Below are positions 15,974 to 38,678 of a DNA stretch of 43,887 bases, in pieces. The DNA comes from a virus (Duplodnaviria > Heunggongvirae > Uroviricota > Caudoviricetes): IMG/VR virus record IMGVR_UViG_3300032007_000048, positions 64,001 through 107,887 of that record. One strand, 5' to 3'. The notes beneath the pieces are model-generated. The model was given only the letters and a program-made list of their open reading frames with translations, had not been told where the DNA came from and searched no databases. Within the stretch, counting starts at the first letter, position 1, and each line of letters opens with the position of its first letter. A program made the translations under genes and the position numbers.

Positions 15974-16110
15974 GGGAATGATATACTTGTTGGCTAACAC
16001 CACTTTATATCTCAGCGATTCACAGGGTTCGTAACCTCTTCCCTCCACGCCATGCAGTCGTTCCCTCGGCTGTCTTTTATTTCTATAAACCTATAAGGTT
16101 TTGTTTTTCT
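15974..16110 (-). ncRNA. Probable omega/reRNA scaffold of the TIR-flanked tnpB
   Basis: GC-rich structured tract at the tnpB 3' end (GACAGCCGAGGGAACGACTGCATGGCGTGGAGGG...), hairpin GATATA/TATATC inside the end; position typical of TnpB guide scaffolds. Confidence 0.6.
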
Positions 16111-17210
16111 AATGCAATCCTTTTTACATTAATAGCCGCATTAACATCCCTGTCATGGTGTTCACCACATACAGGACACGCCCATTGTCTATCAGATAAT
16201 TTTAATTCCCTGTTAACATATCCGCAACAATGACATAATTTACTGCTTGGTTCATACCTACCTATGAACACAATGTTTTTACCGTACCATTCAGATTTAT
16301 ATGTGAGTTGTCTGACAAATTCACCCCAAGCGGCATCACTTATTGCTTTTGCGAGATGATGATTCTGTTCTATTCCTTTTACATTTAAATCTTCAAGACA
16401 AATCGTGTCATGCTTCCTAACTAAATCAGTGGATAATTTGTGAATGAAATCATTACGTTGATTGGTTATGCTCCTATAACACTTTGCGACTTGTAATCTT
16501 GCTTTTTCATGGCGATTTGAACCTTGCTTGGTTCTCGCAAATGTCTTTTGCCAATGAGCAAGCATTTTTTGTGATTTATCAAGGTGTTTTGGGTTGCTAT
16601 ATTTTGTACCATCAGATAAAATGGCATAATCCTTAATTCCAAGGTCAATACCAACAGTGGTTTCTGTTATAATTGTTTTTTTATCATTGTTTGATTGTTG
16701 ATTATCAACAACAACTGATACCCAATAAGTACCACATTTATCCTTTGAAACTGTTACCGTGCCTTGTTTAGATGTATCTTGATTCCATGTACGGTTTTTG
16801 CAAAGTTTAATCCATCCCATTTTTGGAATTTTTACTTTCCAATTTTCAAAATCAAAATGGGCACAGTTAATGAACTTAGCCGATTCTCTTGATTTTTTCT
16901 TGGATTTGAAATTTGGGTAATTTGATTTTTTACGGAAAAACCCAGTAAATGCATTTTCAAGGTTTCTTAGTGATTGTTGTAGTGATTCGTTAGCACATTC
17001 ACAAAGAAATGAGGTTTCGTTTTGTTGTTTTAATACAGTTAATTGTTTTGCTAAATCATTATATGATATGGATTTACCATATTCTTTATATGTTTGTGTT
17101 TTTATTTTAAGCCCCCAATTATAGATATACCTTGCACATCCGAAGAACTTATTTAAAAGTTGTTTTTGTTCTTCTGATGGTAGGATTTTATATTTGTATG
17201 CTTTAATCAT
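16083..17210 (-). CDS. tnpB: RNA-guided endonuclease TnpB
   Basis: N-terminal KAYKYKILP, RuvC VGIDLG / CLEDL / DRDVNAA intact, CxxC...CxxC zinc finger. Confidence 0.92.
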   Translation of the reverse strand: MIKAYKYKILPSEEQKQLLNKFFGCARYIYNWGLKIKTQTYKEYGKSISYNDLAKQLTVLKQQNETSFLCECANESLQQSLRNLENAFTGFFRKKSNYPNFKSKKKSRESAKFINCAHFDFENWKVKIPKMGWIKLCKNRTWNQDTSKQGTVTVSKDKCGTYWVSVVVDNQQSNNDKKTIITETTVGIDLGIKDYAILSDGTKYSNPKHLDKSQKMLAHWQKTFARTKQGSNRHEKARLQVAKCYRSITNQRNDFIHKLSTDLVRKHDTICLEDLNVKGIEQNHHLAKAISDAAWGEFVRQLTYKSEWYGKNIVFIGRYEPSSKLCHCCGYVNRELKLSDRQWACPVCGEHHDRDVNAAINVKRIALEKQNLIGL

Positions 17211-21344: not shown

Positions 21345-22904
21345 ATGAGTGTTAACATTATTGTTGCCGTGGGAAACTATGTACCAAATCATGGTTTCCC
21401 TATTGGTATAAAAGGAAATATGCCTTGGCATAATAAGGCGGATTTAAAATGGTTTAAAGACACAACAACAGGACACCCTGTTATTATGGGTAGAAAAACA
21501 TTTGAAGCGATTGGTCATCCACTTCCAAACAGAATGAATATTGTTGTTACTTCAAGAACTCACATATGGCAAGATAATACCGATACCAATATTAGAATAT
21601 GTGATAAACTTGAAGAGGCAATAAAATTTGCCAAGACGATTGATGAAGAAATTTTCATTATTGGTGGCGCAAGTATATATGACTATGCTTTATCACAAAA
21701 TCTTGTTGATAAGGTTTTAATTGATATGCTTGCGGTTGATGTACCTGATGCTGACACATTTTTTCCTGATATTGTCACCAACAATGAATGGGAGGAAGTA
21801 GGAAGACCAACAGAAATAGAAAACAGAAAAGCATACGCCATGACTTATGTTAAATGTAAAGGTCTCAATAATCATGTTGATGAACAATATCTTGATTTGG
21901 TTAATGATATTATTGAACACGGTGAAACCAAAGATACAAGAGCCGGTAAAACAAGGTCTTTGTTCGGTAAACAGTTAAGGTTTAACCTTAAAGAAGGTTT
22001 ACCCATCCTCACCACCAAAAAGGTTTATACAAAAGGAGTTATTCATGAGCTTCTTTGGTTTCTTAAAGGCGACACCAATATAAAATATTTGGTTGAAAAC
22101 AATGTTCATATTTGGGATGATGATGCTTATAGGTATTACCTTGAAGTGGTTAAAAGATGTAAAGGTGTTGAAGGGTATGAAAAAGCCTACAGTAAAGAAA
22201 TTTTCCTAAAATTTGTCAGACTAGGAAGTTTTGGTGAACATTTGTACAATAACGACAAGTCAGTGTATCATTATGGAGACCTTGGACCTGTCTATGGAAA
22301 ACAATGGACAAATTGGGACGGTATAAATCAAATTAAGGAAGTTATAGAAAAACTTAAAACTAATCCTGATGATAGAAGATTGATTGTCTCTGCTTGGAAT
22401 GTTGGTAAACTTCATGATATGGCATTACCACCTTGTCATTATTGCTGTCAATTCTATACAAAAGAAATGACATTGGAAGAAAGACTTAAATATTATGAGG
22501 ATAATGTCGGTATAAGGATGCACGAAAATAATTATGAACTCCTTGACGAATGGGATATTCCAAGAAGAAAATTAAGTTGTATGTGGAATCAGCGCAGCGT
22601 GGATTGTGGTTTAGGTTGGTGCTTCAACGCACTTTCATACTCAATCCTAACACATATGATAGCACAATGTGCTAATATGGATGTTGATGAACTTATATTT
22701 TCAGGTGGTGATGTACATGTTTATGAAAATCATATAGAACCTTTAAAAGAACAATTATCAAGAAACCCACATATGTATGCTTTACCAACACTTAAATTAA
22801 ACCCAAACATAACTAAAATAGAAGATTTCACTTACGAAGACATAAAAATTGAAGGATATAGGTCATATCCAGCAATCAAAATGCCTCTTAGTGTTGGATT
22901 GTGA
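21345..22904 (+). CDS. thyA: Bifunctional dihydrofolate reductase-thymidylate synthase
   Basis: N-terminal DHFR (MPWH...DLKWFK, VIMGRKTFE, IIGGASIY); C-terminal TS (LPILTTKK, GPVYGKQW, ALPPCH, QRSVD, GDVHVY). Confidence 0.95.
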   Translation: MSVNIIVAVGNYVPNHGFPIGIKGNMPWHNKADLKWFKDTTTGHPVIMGRKTFEAIGHPLPNRMNIVVTSRTHIWQDNTDTNIRICDKLEEAIKFAKTIDEEIFIIGGASIYDYALSQNLVDKVLIDMLAVDVPDADTFFPDIVTNNEWEEVGRPTEIENRKAYAMTYVKCKGLNNHVDEQYLDLVNDIIEHGETKDTRAGKTRSLFGKQLRFNLKEGLPILTTKKVYTKGVIHELLWFLKGDTNIKYLVENNVHIWDDDAYRYYLEVVKRCKGVEGYEKAYSKEIFLKFVRLGSFGEHLYNNDKSVYHYGDLGPVYGKQWTNWDGINQIKEVIEKLKTNPDDRRLIVSAWNVGKLHDMALPPCHYCCQFYTKEMTLEERLKYYEDNVGIRMHENNYELLDEWDIPRRKLSCMWNQRSVDCGLGWCFNALSYSILTHMIAQCANMDVDELIFSGGDVHVYENHIEPLKEQLSRNPHMYALPTLKLNPNITKIEDFTYEDIKIEGYRSYPAIKMPLSVGL

Positions 22905-22973
22905 AAAATAATTTGTTTTTCGCTTTACTTTTTAATCTTTTATGCTATTTATTAGTATAAGAGATTTTTAGTT

Positions 22974-24116
22974 ATGATAGGATACATTTATAAAATTATA
23001 AATAATAAAACAAACAAGTTTTACATCGGGTCCACATTAAACCCCAAAGTAAGAAAAGAAAGACATTTTAACGAACTAAAGTCTAATAAACATCATTCAG
23101 TTTATTTACAGAGAGCATACAATAAATATGGCGGTGAAAATTTTGACTTTGTGATAATTAAAGCAAGAGAATTCTCATCAGAAGAAGAACTTAGGGCATT
23201 AGAAGAAAGATACATTAATTTTTGTTGGAATAGTGGAAAATTGTATAATGTTTCAAAGAACGGAAGTGGTGGGGATATTGTTTCATATCATCCTTTTTTA
23301 AATAAAATAAAAGAGAAACAAAGAATTGCAACTAAAAATAGATGGGACTCAAAAACTGATGAGGAAAAACAAGTGTATTCTGAAAAATTGAGAGGAAAGG
23401 GAAACCCAAATTTTGGCAATAAATGGACTAAAGAACAACGGGAAAAGGCATCTAAAGAAAAGAAGGAATATTTTAAAACACATGATAATTACATAAAAGG
23501 AAAAACATTTGAAGAAGTGTATGGAATAGAACGAGCAGCAGAAATAAAACAAAAATTATCAGTGTCTTTTTCAAAAAGAACTGGTGAAAAAAATTCTTTT
23601 TATGGAAAACATCATACTGAAGAAACTAAGAAAAAACTTTCAGAACAAATGAAAGGTAAAATTCCCGCTGATGCTAAAAAGGTTCGATACAACGGAATTG
23701 TTTATGAGTCAGCAATGGAATGTTCAAAAAAGACCGGTATAAATTATCTTACAGTTTGTTATAGATGTAGAGAACAAATTTATGGTTTTTCTTATGTTGG
23801 TGAAGAAAAAACAAAACGAGAAGCAAAAAAAATGTGGAATTTAGAAGATTGTGAAATTATTGCAAAAACATGTAAAACAAAGAAAGAATTTGAACAAAAA
23901 AATGCTTCAGCATATCAATGGGTTTTAAAAAATGGATATATGAAAGAATTTTCGGAAAAATATTTCATAGAATTGAGACATAGATGGACACTTGATGAAG
24001 TTTTAAAAATTGCAAAAAAATATTCATCTTATAGTGAGTTTTGGAATGCGGAAAAGAAGGCTGTTTCTGCTATGAAGAGAAACAAATGGAATAATATAGT
24101 AAAAAACATCTTTTAA
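22974..24116 (+). CDS. Free-standing GIY-YIG homing endonuclease with NUMOD3-like motifs
   Basis: GYIYKI...FYIGS; GKGNPNFG, GEKNSFYGKHHTEETKKKLS; CTATTTAT at 22945. Confidence 0.88.
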   Translation: MIGYIYKIINNKTNKFYIGSTLNPKVRKERHFNELKSNKHHSVYLQRAYNKYGGENFDFVIIKAREFSSEEELRALEERYINFCWNSGKLYNVSKNGSGGDIVSYHPFLNKIKEKQRIATKNRWDSKTDEEKQVYSEKLRGKGNPNFGNKWTKEQREKASKEKKEYFKTHDNYIKGKTFEEVYGIERAAEIKQKLSVSFSKRTGEKNSFYGKHHTEETKKKLSEQMKGKIPADAKKVRYNGIVYESAMECSKKTGINYLTVCYRCREQIYGFSYVGEEKTKREAKKMWNLEDCEIIAKTCKTKKEFEQKNASAYQWVLKNGYMKEFSEKYFIELRHRWTLDEVLKIAKKYSSYSEFWNAEKKAVSAMKRNKWNNIVKNIF

Positions 24117-26524: not shown

Positions 26525-27202
26525 ATGACTGAAATAGTTCTTACTGAAACTGATTTAAAAAATATAATAGAGAAAAGTGTTAAAAATGTTATGATGGAAA
26601 CATCACGCAGACAAAAAGCACAACAAGCAATACAAGGAACTAATCGTAGGGTTAGAACAATGGCTATTATTTCAGCAGAAAATCCTATGGGTAATAAGGC
26701 TGAAAAAGAATATAATCAGCAAGCAAGTAATGAATTAGAAAGACAACTTAGTATTGGACATTATAAATATTTTAAAGTAAAAGGTAACTATGATGGTATT
26801 GAGAATTCTATAATGGTATATAATATCACTATTGAAGATACACTTTATCTATGTTACAAATATAACCAAGAAAGTGTGATATTTGTTGATATGCAAAACG
26901 ATGGAGAAGTTTCATACCAATATTGGGAAGGTGATGACAAGCACTCACAGTTAAAACTTCAACATGAAGAGCATGAAATTGTAGATGCTACCGATGATGA
27001 CAACTACTATACACAAATATCCAAGCATTTTAAATTTAGAATACCTTTTTTTGAACAAGTAAAGAAAATATATGATGATTTGGCTTTGAGAGAAGATACT
27101 ATTGATATAGACAAAATTATAACAGAAAGTCTTGAACCAACTCGCACAGGTAAATCAAAATATTTTAAAAGAGGTCAATTGTACGGCAAAAATGTTAAAT
27201 AA
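26525..27202 (+). CDS. Hypothetical protein (DUF3293-like), paralog of 36084..36860
   Basis: AIISAENP, GNYDGIENSIMVYN, KYNQESVIF; N-terminal LTETDLKNIIEKSV motif. Confidence 0.65.
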   Translation: MTEIVLTETDLKNIIEKSVKNVMMETSRRQKAQQAIQGTNRRVRTMAIISAENPMGNKAEKEYNQQASNELERQLSIGHYKYFKVKGNYDGIENSIMVYNITIEDTLYLCYKYNQESVIFVDMQNDGEVSYQYWEGDDKHSQLKLQHEEHEIVDATDDDNYYTQISKHFKFRIPFFEQVKKIYDDLALREDTIDIDKIITESLEPTRTGKSKYFKRGQLYGKNVK

Positions 27203-27886: not shown

Positions 27887-27913
27887 CAAAAAAAAATGTT
27901 AAAATTTATATTT

Positions 27914-27928
27914 TGGCACGATTTTTGA
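27914..27928 (+). promoter_or_regulatory. Sigma-54-like -24/-12 motif
   Basis: TGGCACG-ATTT-TTGA upstream of the intron-containing tRNA-Gln. Confidence 0.55.
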
Positions 27929-27958
27929 AATAAAAAGAAACAGTTCTTTGAAATAAAT

Positions 27959-28585
27959 TGAAGGCTCGTCTAAAGGTAAGACATGGGATTTTGAAAAAAT
28001 CGAATGCTTCAAAAGAAATTTTGTATGTAGAATTCTCCAAATTCGGTGAAGGCTAAGTAATCATATAAGAGTGTGTTTGTCCGAGAGGGCATTGTAAATC
28101 ACGAGATTATCCGAGAGGATATAACAGATGAGATATATGCTAATACCGAGCCAATGTTATAGTTTTGCAGGGGATTCGAGTTCCCACATATGGACAAAGT
28201 GTAATTCTTTGTGCAAGGTGTAGCAAACGGAGCATGTAAAACTTAGACAGTGTGTAGAGACTAGATGGAGAAAACCTAAGTTGAAATGGAAGAAGAGTAA
28301 TATTCCACATCCGTAAGAATATATATTATTTCAATAAGGATTGAGTTTATAAGAAAGTACTTAGAGACTGATGCTTCCTACTTGCGCAAGATTTCAATAT
28401 GGTTAAGGTATAGTCCAGACCACAAACAATGTAAATTGCAGTAAACGGGATAAATATATAGCAATATGTTCCTTCACCAACCATGAGAGGTGGGTAAATA
28501 TCATCCTGCAATTGAATGCTAGTTGGTAGTGAAAGCTATAGTGGTATGGGTTCCCAGAATAGAGGTTCGATTCCTCTGCCTTCAA
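27959..28585 (+). tRNA. tRNA-Gln(TTG), split: exons 27959-27992 and 28549-28585
   Basis: Joined exons give TGGGA-TTTT|GGT-TCCCA with complete acceptor (TGAAGGC/GCCTTCA), D and T arms. Confidence 0.88.
27993..28548 (+). ncRNA. Group I intron (556 nt) after U35 of tRNA-Gln
   Basis: P AAATTCGGTGAA 28039, Q AATACCGAGCC 28142, R TGTAGAGACTA 28253, S AAGGTATAGTCC 28405; P7 GACTA/TAGTC; P3 TTCTCC/GGAGAA; terminal G. Confidence 0.9.
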
Positions 28586-28597
28586 CTAAAAATTAAT

Positions 28598-28628
28598 TTT
28601 GTTGTAAAAAAAAAGATTTATACATTTG
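28598..28628 (+). promoter_or_regulatory. Bacteroidota sigma-A-type promoter
   Basis: TTTG (28598) N19 TACATTTG (28621-28628). Confidence 0.6.
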
Positions 28629-28717
28629 CAATGAAATTAATATTTCTTTGACAATACTGATAAATACAAATTATTTTATTGAATATGTGAAATTGAAAAT
28701 AAAATATGGTCACGAAG

Positions 28718-28824
28718 GCTGAGGTGGTGCGAATTGGAAGACTCGTAGGGGTAATACCCAGTTCAGGCGAGTAACCTGCATTATCCTTTGATAATGACTG
28801 TCGGTTCGAATCCGACTCTCAGCA
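28718..28824 (+). ncRNA. tRNA-Leu-like RNA with degenerate anticodon arm and two extra hairpins
   Basis: Acceptor GCTGAGG/TCTCAGC-A, perfect T arm GTCGG-TTCGAAT-CCGAC, Leu-type D loop; 107 nt. Confidence 0.6.
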
Positions 28825-28950
28825 TACTATGGTGACTTTCTTAATAAAGAAAAAACTGACAGTAGCATTGAATAGATGTTTAACAATATTATTAAGACTT
28901 TTCTTAATAATCGTTAATGGTGACAGAGTTCAGAATAATCTTTATTTTAC

Positions 28951-29760
28951 GGTGAGGTGGCAGAGTGGTCTAATGCAGCGGTCTTGAAAATATTTTCAAT
29001 TTTTTTCATACTATTTATATATAACAATACAAATATGTTAACGCTGATGTTAATGGCAGTTATAATATTATGAAAAAAAGCAGTCCCAAACGCATTTGCG
29101 AATGGGATAGAGGGTTTAGGAGTTAACCCATTAGTTTTAACTATAAAGAAATAATTTACTATTTTATTTCATACTCTTGAACAATGTGTAATTTGAGTGC
29201 GCTAAAAGAAATTTTAGATGTAGAACCTCCCTAATTCGGTGAAACCTTAACAGATAATGCTGATGGTAATACCGAGCCAATGTTAAGGTAACAACAGATT
29301 GCCGTTGTTTTAAAATAAGTGTAGTAAAGCCTACAGTGCCTTAGACAGTGTGTAGAGACGATATGGGAGGAACCTAAGTTGAAATTGTATAAGTGGAACT
29401 AGAATTAAAGAAGTGAATTGACACGATGCGTTTATACGAAGCTTGAAGGTGCTGAGGTAAACTTATACATCTTGCAAGGTTTCAATAAGGTTAAGATAGA
29501 GTCCAGACCACAAACAAAACAAACACTCACAAAACGTTGGGGAAACACTACGGAGAACATGAAAGCGATATATCGTGAGTATGCAGGTTGGCGTAGAGTA
29601 TAATTGTAGAGACGTTTTCGTAGTTAGATAATACTATGCCTCAGTTAAGTGGGGACATTCGAATAAATTGTGTTTCTTGTTTTGGTAGCGAAAGCTATAG
29701 TGGTAAGGAAAACCGCCGGTCGTGATGAGCGACCCCTGAGTTCGAATCTCAGTCTCACCG
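28951..29760 (+). tRNA. tRNA-Ser(TGA), split: exons 28951-28985 and 29708-29760
   Basis: Joined exons give GCGGT-CTT|GAAA-ACCGC, long variable arm, G73. Confidence 0.88.
28986..29707 (+). ncRNA. Group I intron (722 nt) after U34 of tRNA-Ser, with a ~200-nt insert in the P1 loop
   Basis: P 29232, Q 29268, R 29351, S AAGATAGAGTCC 29493; P3 CCTCCC/GGGAGG; terminal G. P7 is imperfect (GACGA vs GAGTC). Confidence 0.85.
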
Positions 29761-29772
29761 CGGAAAAAAATT

Positions 29773-29899
29773 CGGAAATTAGTGTAACAGTAACACGGTG
29801 ACTTTTTTATTTGCGTTTTTTGGAAAAAAAATGTACAGCAACATTCTGTTATAAAATTATTGGGTGTCACAGTTCAAGGTGCAAATCCTTGGTTTCCGA
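29773..29899 (+). tRNA. tRNA-Pro(TGG)-like gene with a 56-nt insert in the anticodon loop (function uncertain)
   Basis: Acceptor CGGAAAT/GTTTCCG-A, D arm GTGT/ACAC, anticodon stem GTGAC/GTCAC, T arm CAAGG-TGCAAAT-CCTTG. Confidence 0.6.
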
Positions 29900-29914
29900 C
29901 AAATTATCACATAT

Positions 29915-29951
29915 TTTGCTACATTTTCAAACCCTTTGAAAATGTAGCAAA
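29915..29951. repeat. Perfect 17-bp inverted repeat with 3-nt loop
   Basis: TTTGCTACATTTTCAAA-ccc-TTTGAAAATGTAGCAAA. Confidence 0.85.
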
Positions 29952-29975
29952 TTTTATGATAAAAACTTATAAATT

Positions 29976-30146
29976 AATTAGTTTCACATCCCAGTGATGG
30001 GTGATAGTTGGCATTAGAGTAATGGGTTATCCGGAAAAAATCACATTACACTTGCTGAGTGGTAATAATCGAAAGGCGCGCTAATAAAACGCCACTCCAT
30101 AGGCTTCTTGTTGAATTCATTGGCAGAGATGGAACAGAAACTAATT
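29976..30146 (+). ncRNA. Unidentified multibranch structured RNA candidate
   Basis: 10-bp closing stem AATTAGTTTC/GAAACTAATT; internal GTAATG/CATTAC, GAGTGG/CCACTC, TCCAT/ATGGA. Confidence 0.45.
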
Positions 30147-30152
30147 ATTTTT

Positions 30153-30225
30153 CGGGATGTAGTTCAGTTGGTAGAACACTTGGTTTGGGACCAAGGGGTC
30201 GTACGTTCGAGTCGTATCATCCCGA
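30153..30225 (+). tRNA. tRNA-Pro(TGG)
   Basis: CTTGG-TTTGGGA-CCAAG; C1:G72, A73. Confidence 0.92.
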
Positions 30226-30235
30226 CAAAATTTAT

Positions 30236-30310
30236 AGTCATATGGTGTAATTGGTTAACATGCCACCCTGTCACGGTGGAGATTTACGGGTTCGAACCCC
30301 GTTATGACTG
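30236..30310 (+). tRNA. tRNA-Asp(GTC)
   Basis: CCACC-CTGTCAC-GGTGG; G73. Confidence 0.92.
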
Positions 30311-30404
30311 CTCATATTGGAGCATGGTGATTTTTCTTTTTTTTGAACAACTTATAGTTCAAAACTTGATTTTTTCACATTTTTCTGTATATTTATATAA
30401 AAAA

Positions 30405-31232
30405 ATGGTTATGTTTATAGATATAAGTAATGATGATAAAAAACATAAAGTATATGAACTATTCAAGTCATTTTCTACCAAAAAAGAAATTTATGAATAT
30501 TATGGTGTTTGTAGCAATACTGCAAATATAAGATATATCAATAAGGTAGCAGAAGAAATTGGTTTTGATTTTGGTTGGTATAAAGAAAAGAAAAAACGTT
30601 ATTGTGTTAAATGTGGTAAGGAATTAATCTCTGGGCAAAAAAAGTTTTGTTCATCGTCTTGTGCTGCTTCTTTTAATAATAAAAATAGAGTCTTAAGTAC
30701 CGAAACAAAAGAAAAGATATCTTTGAAACTAAGAACTAATACTCTAACAAATAGAAAAAGGAACGGTTCCGGATATAAACAAAATCTTTATACATTTAAA
30801 GAGAGGCTTTTTAGGGAAGGGATAAAAGAGCGAAAATGTGAAAGGTGTGGTATTACGGAGTGGATGGGTGAAAAAATTGTTTTACAATTGCATCATATTG
30901 ACGGAAATAAACAAAATAATGCAATTGACAATATACAAATACTCTGTCCAAACTGTCATTCTCAGACCGATAATTTTTGTGGAAAAAACATAGCAACAAA
31001 TAAGGAAATAACTTGTTGTAAAGGTTGTGGTAAACCACTAGCATATAGGACAGTTCATGGTTATTGTCTTACATGTTACAGAGAAAGACTTGATACCGTA
31101 AAACACAAACCAGAAAAAGAAACATTAGCAAATGATTTCTTAGAAATAAAAACATTTGCAGGACTTGCGAGAAAATATTCCGTAAGCCCAACAACAGTGA
31201 AAAGATGGCTTATTGATTATGGAATAATTTAA
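30405..31232 (+). CDS. Free-standing HNH endonuclease
   Basis: CERCG...LQLHHIDGNKQNNAIDNIQILCPNCHSQT. Start moved from 30108 (which overlaps two tRNAs) to ATG 30405. Confidence 0.88.
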   Translation: MVMFIDISNDDKKHKVYELFKSFSTKKEIYEYYGVCSNTANIRYINKVAEEIGFDFGWYKEKKKRYCVKCGKELISGQKKFCSSSCAASFNNKNRVLSTETKEKISLKLRTNTLTNRKRNGSGYKQNLYTFKERLFREGIKERKCERCGITEWMGEKIVLQLHHIDGNKQNNAIDNIQILCPNCHSQTDNFCGKNIATNKEITCCKGCGKPLAYRTVHGYCLTCYRERLDTVKHKPEKETLANDFLEIKTFAGLARKYSVSPTTVKRWLIDYGII

Positions 31233-31240
31233 CTGTGTAA

Positions 31241-31325
31241 GCGTCCATGGCGCAATTGGTAGCGCATCTGACTTTTAATCAGAGGGGTCCGTAAGGCGTT
31301 ATGGGTTCGAGTCCCATTGGACGCA
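31241..31325 (+). tRNA. tRNA-Lys(TTT) with a 17-nt variable region
   Basis: TCTGA-CTTTTAA-TCAGA then GGGGTCCGTAAGGCGTT before the T arm. Confidence 0.85.
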
Positions 31326-31348
31326 CAATTTTTAAAAATATTATTTAT

Positions 31349-31975
31349 GCTTCGGTAGCTCAGTGGATAGAGCAACTGCCTTTAAGTAATTGATAATCAA
31401 TTAATTAGGAGTGCACTAAAAGAAATTTTAGATGTAGAAACTTCCAAATTCGGTGAAAGCTAAGTATAAAATCAAATCAGACACTCTATATGAGTCGGAC
31501 AGGTGAAGAGTCCTGTTAATATATGCTAATACCGAACCAATGTTAAAAACAAATACTCACCTCGTTTGCAAAAGGTGTTAATTGGGAATGTAATGAAAAG
31601 GCGTTATTGCATAGAAGGCAAATATATGCAATTAAGCTACATTTCAGTATTTGTAATAGACAGTGTGTAGAGACTAGACGGAAGAAACCTAAGTTGAAAT
31701 TTGGATTTTAAAATTAAAACAAACTGTGCAGGAAAGCGACCTGCTATTCGGGGTAAGAACAAACCCTAATCCAATCTTGCAAGATTTCAATATGGTTAAG
31801 GGATAGTCCAGACCACAAACAATATAAAGACCCGAAATAAGAGGAACATAAAAGGGATGTTACGGAATGACTGCAATCCTCTTGTGCTGTAGGTCATTTT
31901 TAGTCTTATATTGGTAACGAAAGTTATAGTGGTAAGCTAAGCAGTTGGTCCTGCGTTCGAGTCGCAGCCGAAGTA
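31349..31975 (+). tRNA. tRNA-Arg(TCT), split: exons 31349-31382 and 31937-31975
   Basis: Joined exons give ACTGC-CTT|CTAA-GCAGT; acceptor GCTTCGG/CCGAAGT. Confidence 0.88.
31383..31936 (+). ncRNA. Group I intron (554 nt) after U34 of tRNA-Arg
   Basis: AAATTCGGTGAA, AATACCGAACC, TGTAGAGACTAG, AAGGGATAGTCC; P7 GACTA/TAGTC; P3 CTTCC/GGAAG; terminal G. Confidence 0.9.
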
Positions 31976-31982
31976 CAAAAAA

Positions 31983-32014
31983 TTTGTTTTTGTCAATTAA
32001 TATTTATATATTTG
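31983..32014 (+). promoter_or_regulatory. Bacteroidota sigma-A-type promoter
   Basis: TTTG (31983) N20 TATATTTG (32007-32014). Confidence 0.65.
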
Positions 32015-32139
32015 CAATGTAAGTTATTTGACAATGTTGAAAAATTAGAAACTAAACAATAGCAGAAATTCAATAGTTGTTTTATTGGTTCCATTATAAT
32101 AATGGCTGCTCATATTCTATTAAGTAATTTTTAGAATGA

Positions 32140-33236: not shown

Positions 33237-34202
33237 ATGACTACCTTATATACACAAGAAGAATACAATTCATCTAAGTCAAGTGATTTATTGCCACTTA
33301 AATGTGAGCACTGCGGAAAAACTTTTTATGTACAAAAAAATCTTATTACACACGAACTAAACAATCTTCGTGGTAGATGTAAGTTTTGCTCAATGGATTG
33401 TTTTTATGAAAGTAAAAAAACTAGAATTAAAGTTTATTGTGAAAAATGCGGTAAAGAGTTCGAAATCAAGAAAAATGTTTATAATGATTCTAAAACAAAA
33501 CATTTTTTTTGCTCTCACTCATGTGCAGCATCTTTTAATAATGTTACGAGAGATGCAATGAGTGACGAAACAAAGGAAAAAATAAGGCAGTCTTTAAAAC
33601 AACATTATAAATCACTAAATAAGCAAGTAAATTTTGAAGAAAAAAAAGATGTTAAACACAGAGAAAGGAAAAAAAGAACATGCAAAGTTTGCGGAAAAAC
33701 GTATTATTATTCTACTCTGTTTCCAGGTACCACAAAAGTAGTATGTAGTAAAGAGTGTAGCGAAACGATAAAAAAGCATAAAAAAGAGTTTTTGTCACAA
33801 GAAACAATTGAAAAATTAAGAAATGCGGGTAAAAACTCTGCAAAATCTCAAGCAGATAAAAGGCGTTCGAAAAACGAAAAATATTTTTGCGAACTATGCG
33901 AAAAATATTTTAAGGATGTAAAACACAATGTTCCAATGTTTAACGGTTGGGATGCTGATGTAATAATTGAAGACATAAAAACTGCGATTTTATGGAACGG
34001 AAAATGGCATTATGAAAAAATTACAGAAAAGCATTCTATAGAACAAGTTCAAAAACGAGATTCAATAAAAATTGAAGAGATAATAAAAATGGGTTATAAG
34101 CCATACATCATAAAGGATATGGGTAAGTATAATCCTTTGTTTGTTGAAGAAGAATTTAAGAAATTTATTAAGGAAACACACAGCAAGTTTTTCATGGATT
34201 AA
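33237..34202 (+). CDS. Free-standing putative homing endonuclease (Cys-rich repeats plus PD-(D/E)XK-like C-terminus)
   Basis: CEHCGK, CEKCGK...FCSHSCAA, CKVCGK; WDADVII...AILWNGKWH; CTATTTAT at 33214. Confidence 0.7.
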   Translation: MTTLYTQEEYNSSKSSDLLPLKCEHCGKTFYVQKNLITHELNNLRGRCKFCSMDCFYESKKTRIKVYCEKCGKEFEIKKNVYNDSKTKHFFCSHSCAASFNNVTRDAMSDETKEKIRQSLKQHYKSLNKQVNFEEKKDVKHRERKKRTCKVCGKTYYYSTLFPGTTKVVCSKECSETIKKHKKEFLSQETIEKLRNAGKNSAKSQADKRRSKNEKYFCELCEKYFKDVKHNVPMFNGWDADVIIEDIKTAILWNGKWHYEKITEKHSIEQVQKRDSIKIEEIIKMGYKPYIIKDMGKYNPLFVEEEFKKFIKETHSKFFMD

Positions 34203-37253: not shown

Positions 37254-37421
37254 ATTTTAAAAAAAAAATAGTTTATTATCTGGGGGCTTCTAAACAATTT
37301 TTTCTCTTACAGGGTTATTAACAGTTAAATAAAATTCTAAGAAAAAGTCTTAATAATCAAGATTTTTTCAAAACATAAACTATTTATAAAAGGATTGGGT
37401 TATAAACCCCATTGTTTGATA

Positions 37422-38678
37422 ATGATATTAAGAACAGTTAAAATAAGGTTATATCCTAATAAGGAACAGGAACAAACACTTAACAAAGTGCTTGGATGCT
37501 ACCGATTTGTCTATAATCAAATGCTTGCACATAAACAAAAGGCTTATAATGCGGACAAAACTAATGTTGGTCTTTGCGAATTATCAAAATTCTTTCACGG
37601 AGAACTACTGAAAAACGAACAATATTCTTGGTTGAAAGAACAAAATACCAAGGTAATGAAACAAGCAATAAGACAGATGTTGTCTGCTTATGATGGCTTC
37701 TTTACTCTTGGTAAAGGGTTTCCTAAATTCAAAACCAAACACAACGACAATTCAGCATTGTTCCCTTATGAAGCAATATCTAAAACAAATACTTTTAAAA
37801 CTAAACATATCTCCTTAACTAAAAATCTGAAAAACCTGAAGTTCCGTTGTTCAAACTTATATTTCAATAGATTGAAAACCTATAAGGACAATATAAAGTG
37901 TGCTACCTTATCGAAAACCAAGAGTGGTAAATACTACTTATCTGTCCTTTTATCCATGAATGAAGAAGAATTCAGACAATTCAGACACACAGGTAACAGA
38001 GTTGGCATTGACCTTGGTGTAAAGGATTTTGTAATTACTTCTGATGGGGAAGTATTTGAAAATAAACACTTCTTTAAAAAAAGTGAAAACAAAATCAAAA
38101 AGTTACAAAGACAATTGTCCAAGAAAGCCAAAGGCTCAAACAACAGAAACAAGGCAAGAGTTAAACTTGCAAAAGAATTTGAACGTTTAAACAATCAAAG
38201 AATTGATTATGTTCACAGTGTTGTCAATTCATTATTGGAAAATTATGATTATGTTTTCATGGAGAACCTGAATGTTCAGGGGATGCTAAAGAATCATAAG
38301 TTATCTAAAGCAATACAAGAGGTTGGTTTTTATGCATTTAAAAATACACTAAAGAACAAAGCAATATTGAATAACAAGTTTGTGATTGAAGTTGACCGAT
38401 GGTTTGCAAGTTCAAAGACTTGTCACTGTTGTGGTTATGTTTACAAGGGACTGACACTTGACGAACGATTGTGGGATTGTCCTGAATGTGGAGAGCACCA
38501 TGATAGGGATTTGAATGCTGCGATTAACATTTTAAAGGAAGGAGAAAGAATAATAGGGAGCCGTACTCCCGAATATACGCTTGCGGAGAAACCAACTGTG
38601 GATGACAGACTCAGCAATGAGGTACTAAAAAGCAGTGTTTCGTTGAAACAAGAAATGGGAACTAAGAATTGTTCATAG
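37422..38678 (+). CDS. tnpB: RNA-guided endonuclease TnpB (no transposase in the window)
   Basis: MILRTVKIRLYP, RuvC VGIDLG / FMENL / DRDLNAA intact, zinc finger; start moved to ATG 37422; CTATTTAT at 37380. Confidence 0.92.
   Translation: MILRTVKIRLYPNKEQEQTLNKVLGCYRFVYNQMLAHKQKAYNADKTNVGLCELSKFFHGELLKNEQYSWLKEQNTKVMKQAIRQMLSAYDGFFTLGKGFPKFKTKHNDNSALFPYEAISKTNTFKTKHISLTKNLKNLKFRCSNLYFNRLKTYKDNIKCATLSKTKSGKYYLSVLLSMNEEEFRQFRHTGNRVGIDLGVKDFVITSDGEVFENKHFFKKSENKIKKLQRQLSKKAKGSNNRNKARVKLAKEFERLNNQRIDYVHSVVNSLLENYDYVFMENLNVQGMLKNHKLSKAIQEVGFYAFKNTLKNKAILNNKFVIEVDRWFASSKTCHCCGYVYKGLTLDERLWDCPECGEHHDRDLNAAINILKEGERIIGSRTPEYTLAEKPTVDDRLSNEVLKSSVSLKQEMGTKNCS

Follow-up and report, generated by a model that had tools for sequence, protein, structure and literature searches.

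Group I introns of the bacterial tRNA type in three tRNA genes of a large cattle-gut phage

Three tRNA genes of a large uncultured cattle-gut phage, those for tRNA-Gln(UUG), tRNA-Ser(UGA) and tRNA-Arg(UCU), are split in their anticodon loops by homologous inserts that are very probably catalytically active tRNA group I introns of subgroup IC3 (Azoarcus/Anabaena-like), lacking an open reading frame (ORF). The genes belong to a tRNA array in a 43,887-nt stretch of DNA (hereafter, the window), which is the final 43.9 kb of the 107.9-kb IMG/VR record IMGVR_UViG_3300032007_000048; the record has 33.8% G+C and is roughly 30% complete as estimated by CheckV. A preliminary description of this DNA had proposed group I introns in the anticodons of three phage tRNAs, and family-wide covariation, RNA circles and an intron-less allele now back that proposal.

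Removal of the inserts restores three complete tRNAs, all on the plus strand. In ARAGORN, the joined exons at 27959–27992 and 28549–28586 give a 72-nt tRNA-Gln(ttg), those at 28951–28985 and 29708–29761 an 89-nt tRNA-Ser(tga), and those at 31349–31382 and 31937–31976 a 74-nt tRNA-Arg(tct), each with a complete 5-bp anticodon stem, U33 and a purine at position 37. The same three split genes are called by the intron mode of ARAGORN; this mode frequently misplaces boundaries and misnames the tRNA, and the boundaries were therefore re-derived by setting the 3′ end at the conserved intron terminus and then scoring every 5′ boundary with an anticodon-arm check. The best boundary for each gene combines a 5-bp anticodon stem, U33, a purine at 37, a U at position −1 and an intron-terminal G. 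The 5′ exons accordingly end in U (U−1), which is U35 in Gln and U34 in Ser and Arg, and the inserts, at 27993–28548 (556 nt), 28986–29707 (722 nt) and 31383–31936 (554 nt), all end in GTGGTA-N-G. The deletions, terminal nucleotides and insertion positions (after nucleotide 35 in Gln and 34 in Ser and Arg) given in the preliminary description agree with the joined-exon calls and the boundary scoring, and its warning that standard tRNA finders would miss these genes proved correct: default ARAGORN (16 tRNAs in the window) and the Rfam tRNA model (15) return nothing at the three split sites. These genes are the sole Gln, Ser and Arg tRNAs of the 108-kb record.

The three inserts align with each other, and two 16–17-nt core motifs occur in exactly three copies each in the window against 0.07–0.16 expected, so their likeness is not due to chance. 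Read by eye, they show the classical P, Q, R and S elements of group I introns. P4 is UUCGGU/ACCGA(G/A) in all three, and P7, identical across all 28 family sequences compared, reads G(A)GACUA/UAGUCC and contains a bulged A. A G–C pair adjoins the bulged nucleotide of P7, as in the guanosine-binding site of group I introns; pair and bulge are what we take to be the counterpart of Tetrahymena C262/A263/G264–C311. P3 covaries among the inserts (UUCUCC/GGAGAA in Gln, CCUCCC/GGGAGG in Ser and CUUCC/GGAAG in Arg), as do P2 and the L9 hairpin, in line with the covariation of P2, P3 and P9 reported earlier from the sequence.

To extend this comparison, 29 family introns with exon-defined ends were curated, and RNAalifold was run on 28 of them over 385 well-occupied alignment columns, with P7 added manually. 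The excluded sequence is the near-identical Arg copy of L043 (IMGVR_UViG_3300028048_000103), a relative that is syntenic with the window across the tRNA array at 85–96% identity. RNAalifold gives P2, P3, P4, P5, P6, P8, P9 and a terminal hairpin. Paired cells make up 96% of P2, 99% of P3, 98% of P4–P5, 100% of P9 and 99% of the L9 hairpin; compensatory changes occur in 7 of 9 pairs of P2, 4 of 5 of P3, 3 of 9 of P4–P5, 7 of 7 of distal P8 and 4 of 5 of the L9 hairpin, and are present in P9. P6 and P7 are invariant and hence uninformative for covariation. The inserts have the P3/P7 pseudoknot, the P4–P6 stack and the covariation of a group I core.

The peripheral elements follow the same plan. 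L2 and L9 are GAAA tetraloops, and the Gln and Arg introns hold 11-nt receptor motifs, CCUAAG...UAUGG in P8 and (G/A)GCUAAG...UAUGC in P5, of which the Ser intron has variants (UAAGG in P8; CCUUAAC...GAUGG in P5). In the IC3 intron of Azoarcus, L2 docks into P8 and L9 into P5. In the Gln intron, P2 occupies 28005–28032, P3/P4 28027–28050, P7/P3′ 28245–28273, the P8 receptor 28273–28287 and 28391–28405, P7′/P9 28405–28429, and the L9 hairpin through the terminal guanosine (ωG) 28523–28548. The corresponding positions are 29198–29225, 29220–29243, 29343–29371, 29371–29385 with 29479–29493, 29493–29517 and 29682–29707 in the Ser intron, and 31412–31439, 31434–31457, 31658–31686, 31686–31700 with 31784–31798, 31798–31822 and 31911–31936 in the Arg intron. 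None of the three inserts contains an ORF of more than 61 amino acids and, as stated in the preliminary description, none encodes a homing endonuclease. We conclude that the inserts represent bacterial-type tRNA group I introns whose greater length is due to unconserved expansions of P5, P6, P8 and P9.

Each intron carries a 7-nt internal guide sequence, just 5′ of the UGC that opens P2, that is complementary to the ligated exon junction. The Gln guide (27998–28004, AAUC/GAA) pairs with UUU/GGUU at 7 of 7 positions, the Ser guide (29191–29197, AUUU/GAG) with CUU/GAAA at 6 of 7 and the Arg guide (31405–31411, UUAG/GAG) with CUU/CUAA at 7 of 7. U−1 faces a guide G, as a G·U wobble, in the three window introns and in 26 further family copies. 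Over the 28 of 29 curated introns with an anchorable guide, guide and junction pair at 154 of 196 positions, against 110.8 ± 5.6 in guide shuffles, none of 10,000 of which reaches 154. Near the 3′ end of the Gln intron, AAUUGAAUGC (28510–28519) resembles the guide region AAUCGAAUGC (27998–28007), which may be chance or a partial duplication.

The curated introns cut Ser(UGA), Arg(UCU) and Leu(UAG) after nucleotide 34, Leu(UAA) after 33 or 34, Lys(UUU) after 34 or 36, Gln(UUG) after 35, and a CAU tRNA (Met or Ile2) after 36, in the last case with the guide GAUU/GUG, paired at 7 of 7 positions. All tRNAs cut after C32-U33-U34, namely Ser(UGA), Arg(UCU), Leu(UAA/UAG) and Lys(UUU), are read by the same P1 part of the guide, GAG; this part differs only with insertion position, being GAA in Gln, GGU in Leu cut after nucleotide 33 and GUG in the CAU tRNAs. 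The P10 part varies with the tRNA; the Ser and Arg introns share P1 (GAG:CUU) and differ in P10 only. With P1 shared and P10 variable, retargeting is mainly a change of P10, and switching among tRNAs with C32-U33-U34 needs little else. The earlier view of a retargeted guide thus holds for the individual P1 and P10 pairings, and is to be amended in that P1 is mostly constant.

RNA evidence for activity comes from bovine metatranscriptomes. The window stretch was found in several of these and in many bovine gut DNA runs, and contigs from three RNA runs (X3, X9 and X16, from two studies) and one DNA run (X4) were placed on 27900–32050. In X3 and X16, 584-nt contigs (554 nt plus a 30-nt end overlap; 0 and 2 mismatches) join 31936 to 31383, giving a 554-nt circle whose ends match exactly the predicted first and last nucleotides of the Arg intron; this joint is absent from the DNA run X4. 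A 559-nt contig in X9 closes 29707 to 29179, giving a 529-nt Ser circle, and a contig in X3 begins at 29179. In other joints the conserved 3′ end of the intron meets guide/P2 sequences that differ, indicating that circles from relatives are present too. Depth in RNA over the three intron cores is 300–1000 versus 1–45 on exons, spacers and an HNH gene in the array (roughly 10–50-fold), whereas depth in the DNA run is flat at about 37; the Gln intron in X3 stands at about 390–450 versus about 36 in its flanks. These data show transcription, accumulation of excised introns and transesterification by ωG at the predicted sites, and are indirect but specific evidence of ribozyme activity.

On this basis, splicing would proceed as follows. 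P1 would form between the three 3′-terminal nucleotides of the guide and the final three of the 5′ exon, including the U−1·G wobble, and P10 between the three or four 5′-terminal nucleotides of the guide and the first ones of the 3′ exon; the guide would thereby read the anticodon loop itself. An exogenous G would attack after U−1, ωG would then dock at the G–C pair of P7 beside the bulged A, and the exons would be ligated to a normal tRNA, with the L2 and L9 GAAA tetraloops predicted to dock into the 11-nt receptors of P8 and P5. The excised introns would circularise at full length (Arg) or at an internal CUU site that matches the guide (Ser).

Several points weigh against the inserts being active, tRNA-yielding group I introns. 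The Rfam model Intron_gpI (RF00028) has no match in the window at its gathering threshold or even at E ≤ 10, so that the covariance search proposed as a check in the preliminary description failed, and at E ≤ 1 it has none on seven related loci, compact and short members included. The RNA depths were pooled over contigs at least 90% alike, to which the introns of relatives contribute, and the RNA libraries could hold some DNA. No ligated-exon joint is present among the 15 of 42 joints listed, and total-RNA contigs cannot show mature tRNAs; full-length circles can arise by a route that leaves exons unligated, and hence speak for catalysis and splice-site choice, not tRNA production. The abundant Ser RNA starts at an inner site, 29179, and the tRNA may retain a 193-nt insert. 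We treat the missing Intron_gpI matches as a reflection of low model sensitivity, not of a non-group-I nature. Locus L005, from the same phages, has a compact 221-nt tRNA-Leu intron with the same junction motifs, which Rfam aligns to Intron_gpI at 39.7 bits (cutoff 50), mapping its helices in agreement with our manual assignment; and Williams 2020 (bioRxiv 10.1101/2020.01.27.920355) observes that not one of the 12 seeds he used was bacterial.

A secondary insertion lies directly before the start of the abundant Ser RNA. The tRNA-Ser 5′ exon of L043 is the same as in the window, and its GGTCTT is followed directly by GAACAATG / GAACAAUGUGUAAUUUGAGUGC, corresponding to window 29179; window 28986–29178 thus represents 193 nt inserted at the 5′ splice site, in front of an ancestral group I core of 529 nt (29179–29707). 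The insertion is flanked by duplicated TCTTGAA and creates an internal pseudo-5′ splice site, CUCUU/G, at 29178/29179; it has no second copy in the 108-kb record, modest predicted structure (z = −2.6) and an RNA depth of about 0–46 versus 350–990 over the core. Possibly, then, the ribozymes are active but the Ser gene is damaged, cleavage at 29178/29179 leaving 193 nt in the anticodon loop, so that only the Gln and Arg genes give working tRNAs. We regard this as a serious minority reading: the ancestral 5′ end in L043 is the equivalent of 29179, the abundant contigs and the circle begin exactly there, depth over 29012–29150 is only 0–46, and the outer and inner CUU/GAA sites can form the same 6-bp P1. 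Normal splicing at 28985/28986 followed by circularisation at the inner site would also fit the Ser data, by analogy with the Tetrahymena and Azoarcus introns, which circularise at guide-matching sites (PMC13168695). The gene is also the sole tRNA-Ser of the record, and four other members (L021, L035, L014 and L013) carry inserts of 85–180 nt that separate the 5′ splice site from the guide, so that long P1 loops seem to be tolerated; an inner ACUU pseudo-site is present in two of the four. The inserts of L021 and L035 (about 165 nt) are homologous, with 73% identity over about 150 nt, and those of L013 and L014 are 87% identical over 61 nt. These secondary insertions sit exactly at the 5′ splice site of the members, leaving a duplicated exon-like CUU or ACUU beside the guide.

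Other explanations concern what the introns need and why they persist. Splicing in vivo could require a phage or host protein cofactor, such as a chaperone or a maturase-like protein, for which the peripheral expansions would be binding platforms: the introns are two to three times the length of compact family members (185–193 nt), the extra RNA lying in P5, P6, P8 and P9 without an ORF. However, the core is intact, as are its tetraloops and receptors, the expansions show little sequence conservation and no candidate cofactor was identified; we consider this rather unlikely and infer that splicing is protein-independent. We find it improbable, too, that the introns are kept for a benefit to the phage, whether by delaying or gating tRNA maturation, shielding anticodon loops from host anticodon nucleases until splicing, destroying the target sites of tRNA-directed homing endonucleases or through a role of the circles. 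The family is widespread with a highly conserved core in many large phages, its RNA builds up well above the flanks and endonuclease genes populate the tRNA array; yet an intron-less allele in a close relative and a patchy distribution fit a selfish element, and stable excised group I introns are common. It is barely credible that the three genes are pseudogenes split by defunct intron remnants, a reading that the circle junctions already contradict. The lack of recognition by Rfam is all that would suggest it, whereas compensatory covariation, invariant catalytic elements, RNA circles with exact ends, intact exons with perfect stems and an intron 99.6% conserved against 85–89% in its flanks all argue against it.

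A comparison with relatives bears on mobility, for which the preliminary description had suggested looking for intron-less alleles. One was found in L043, whose tRNA-Gln lacks the intron exactly at the predicted junction: it is 71/72 identical to the spliced window gene, with the alignment breaking at 27993/28549. Another Gln allele free of the intron, which differs in its anticodon stem, is present in the DNA run X4. Intron-plus and intron-less alleles thus occupy the same site in tRNA-Gln. The tRNA-Arg gene and intron of L043 are 626/628 identical to those of the window (552/554 for the intron) versus 85–89% in the flanks, which would fit recent gene conversion of the whole cassette. In L043, where the counterpart of window 29516–31302 is deleted, a hybrid intron connects the 5′ half of tRNA-Ser with the 3′ half of a tRNA-Lys other than the one called at window 31241–31326. 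An exact 24-mer for an intron-less Ser allele had no match in IMG/VR, and the 24-mer for the Arg junction, which hit 53 mostly small and apparently unrelated contigs, was not used.

Free-standing endonuclease genes accompany the introns. An HNH gene (30408–31232, plus strand), between the Ser and Arg split tRNAs, matches Pfam PF01844 at 24.2 bits and, by blastn, phage HNH homing endonuclease genes; it is a candidate trans-acting homing enzyme. Just upstream of the array is an I-TevI-like GIY-YIG/NUMOD3 gene (22974–24116), which follows a fused dihydrofolate reductase–thymidylate synthase gene, the pair spanning 21345–24116. Inside the array, 33237–34202 has weak zinc-finger Pfam matches and matches a PHROG annotated as an HNH endonuclease.

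The introns belong to a wider family. An exact core-motif search of IMG/VR gave 47 loci, mostly on contigs of 100–410 kb, of which roughly 45 are true homologues by BLAST, and the family is present in at least seven tRNA species. A blastn search of the region against 50,697 GenBank phage records returned tRNA and HNH fragments only, and no cultured relative with the introns at that sensitivity. Complete compact members of 185–193 nt occur in tRNA-Ser(UGA) (L022:299-570, L034:160-430(-), L036:2032-2307(-) and L041:5218-5498); they have minimal P5, P6, P8 and P9, are shorter than the 205-nt Azoarcus intron and have no Intron_gpI match. The insert of L047 has 977 nt, with a guide that fits Lys rather than Leu. 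In L013 the guide could not be located, and the tRNA of L045 is of doubtful identity, possibly a damaged CAU tRNA. A single match of a 19-mer specific to the Gln intron, in L108, was a chance match without an intron.

An IQ-TREE phylogeny on 286 core columns, from which we use only three well-supported clades since most deep branches are weak, does not cluster the introns by host tRNA (15 label changes; minimum 7; shuffle mean 16.3). The Gln and Arg introns of the window fall in one clade (support 97/98) with one Arg and one Ser intron of other phages, and the window Ser intron lies elsewhere; the three did not arise by recent duplication from one another. For Ser(UGA) hosts, the branches with good support require three origins or more, and the tree could also be blurred by intron recombination. 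The earlier idea that one lineage spread between tRNA species by changing its guide is sustained as to the spread, given the many host tRNAs and a tree that does not track them; the guide change is mostly in P10. Large gut and rumen phages carry the family in many of their tRNA species, and at the DNA level it moves or is lost precisely. As to route, it is conceivable, if unlikely, that this is a generalist tRNA intron lineage whose GAG P1 reads the generic C32-U33-U34 and which colonises new tRNAs by reverse splicing or illegitimate homing, with later tuning of P10; the phage may then keep it because a split loop or the circles serve it, in evading anticodon nucleases or tRNA-directed endonucleases or in timing its tRNAs.

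IC3-type tRNA group I introns are already known, and the tRNA genes of large gut and rumen phages are an undescribed niche for them; in our literature search, no publication came up that reports group I introns from phage tRNA genes. The bacterial IC3 introns (Azoarcus Ile(CAU); cyanobacterial and plastid Leu(UAA), Leu.3Ug; and Rba190.Arg.3Ug, Mun3.Ser.3Ug and Mle24.Lys.3Ug) share with the phage introns the anticodon-loop site, U−1, ωG, the P1/P10 guide, the lack of an ORF, the L2 and L9 GAAA tetraloops and the 11-nt receptors in P8 and P5, and the Ser and Arg introns occupy the classical 34/35 position. In Williams 2020, the number of bacterial tRNA intron types rises from 4 to 21, with seeds that include Ser.3Ug, Arg.3Ug, Lys.3Ug/4Ug and Leu.2Ug, so that the four bacterial hosts listed in the preliminary description (Leu(UAA), fMet, Ile(CAU) and Arg(CCU)) are out of date. 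Compared by eye, the seeds presented there, Rba190.Arg.3Ug and others, have the same 5′ design, GGAG-UGCA-GAAA-AUGUAGAA (that is, GAG-UGC-P2(GAAA)-AUGUAGAA-P3), and the same 3′ design, 'AAGGGAUAGUCCAGACCACAAACAA...GAAA...GUGGUAAG', written 'aagggauaguccag accac aaacaa ... gaaa ... guggu aag' in the seed rows; the likeness of these motifs is striking. Neither a Gln(UUG) host nor the 35/36 position is among those seeds. The phage introns further differ from the bacterial ones in having phage tRNA genes as hosts, with three copies in one array, and in their length, 554–722 nt against roughly 200–300 nt, the excess being unconserved sequence in P5, P6, P8 and P9 and, in some, the P1 loop.

Among phage elements, the group I introns of protein genes (T4 td, nrdB and sunY; SPO1; Twort; cyanophage psbA) are likewise ribozymes that spread by homing; unlike the introns here, they are mostly of subgroup IA and lie in mRNAs. 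ORF-less phage introns can be mobilised by free-standing endonucleases, of which HNH and GIY-YIG genes lie near the tRNA introns. A 2014 review of bacterial group I introns noted that, although phages have many tRNA genes, every phage intron known by that time was in a protein-coding gene (PMC3984707). Devoto et al. 2019 (PMC6784885) then reported 'enigmatic introns' in tRNA genes of Lak megaphages, previously unreported and unclassified after an Rfam test, at least one of them tRNA-like. These also reside in tRNA genes of very large gut phages, are present or absent between close relatives and are highly conserved where present; for the introns described here, unlike those of Lak phages, ribozyme class, structure and RNA products are identified. 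Excised-intron circles have precedents in the L-15/L-19 forms of Tetrahymena, the C and C′ forms of Azoarcus (PMC13168695) and the full-length circles of nuclear introns, in which ωG is joined to an internal guide-paired site, as in Ser, or to the first nucleotide, as in Arg. The circles described here come from contigs of environmental metatranscriptomes rather than a defined assay, and may have formed by a post-splicing or a 3′-hydrolysis-first pathway.

Other features of the array and its surroundings were observed in passing. A tRNA-like element at 28718–28823 combines a well-formed acceptor stem and T arm (GUCGG UUCGAAU CCGAC) with a middle that folds into neither D nor anticodon arms; the Rfam tRNA-Sec model scores it at 20 bits (E 1.5), ARAGORN makes no call and it is roughly 78% conserved in L043. 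The tRNA-Lys(UUU) called at 31241–31326 has a 13-nt variable region, which is atypical of class I tRNAs. Ahead of tRNA-Pro, the upstream spacer at 29957–30152 has high RNA depth (about 527 in X16 and 71 in X9), in contigs whose flanks are unlike the window, and may be an abundant small RNA common to relatives. A gene for an S-adenosylmethionine-lyase-like protein (26525–27202) lies within the array, and the window also holds an insertion sequence transposase (16083–17210, phrog_506) and a TnpB (37395–38678, OrfB_IS605/Cas12f-like). Near the tRNA arrays of related large phages are a GOLLD RNA (L022:2215-2488, 72.6 bits, cut by the locus end) and a tmRNA gene (L041:5509-5910, 107 bits).

The findings fill a gap in a literature in which phage group I introns were known only from protein-coding genes (PMC3984707) and the tRNA introns of Lak phages were left 'enigmatic' (PMC6784885), and intron circles with exact ends in rumen metatranscriptomes indicate that the ribozymes act in vivo. 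The tRNA count rises here from 16 to 19, and the record gains its sole Gln, Ser and Arg tRNAs; because default finders and Rfam miss such split genes, large gut and rumen phages have more tRNAs than are currently counted. With one ribozyme scaffold in at least seven anticodon loops, in forms from 185 nt to 720 nt, the family is a natural retargeting series, well suited to work on how guides evolve, on the transposition of introns and on ribozyme engineering.

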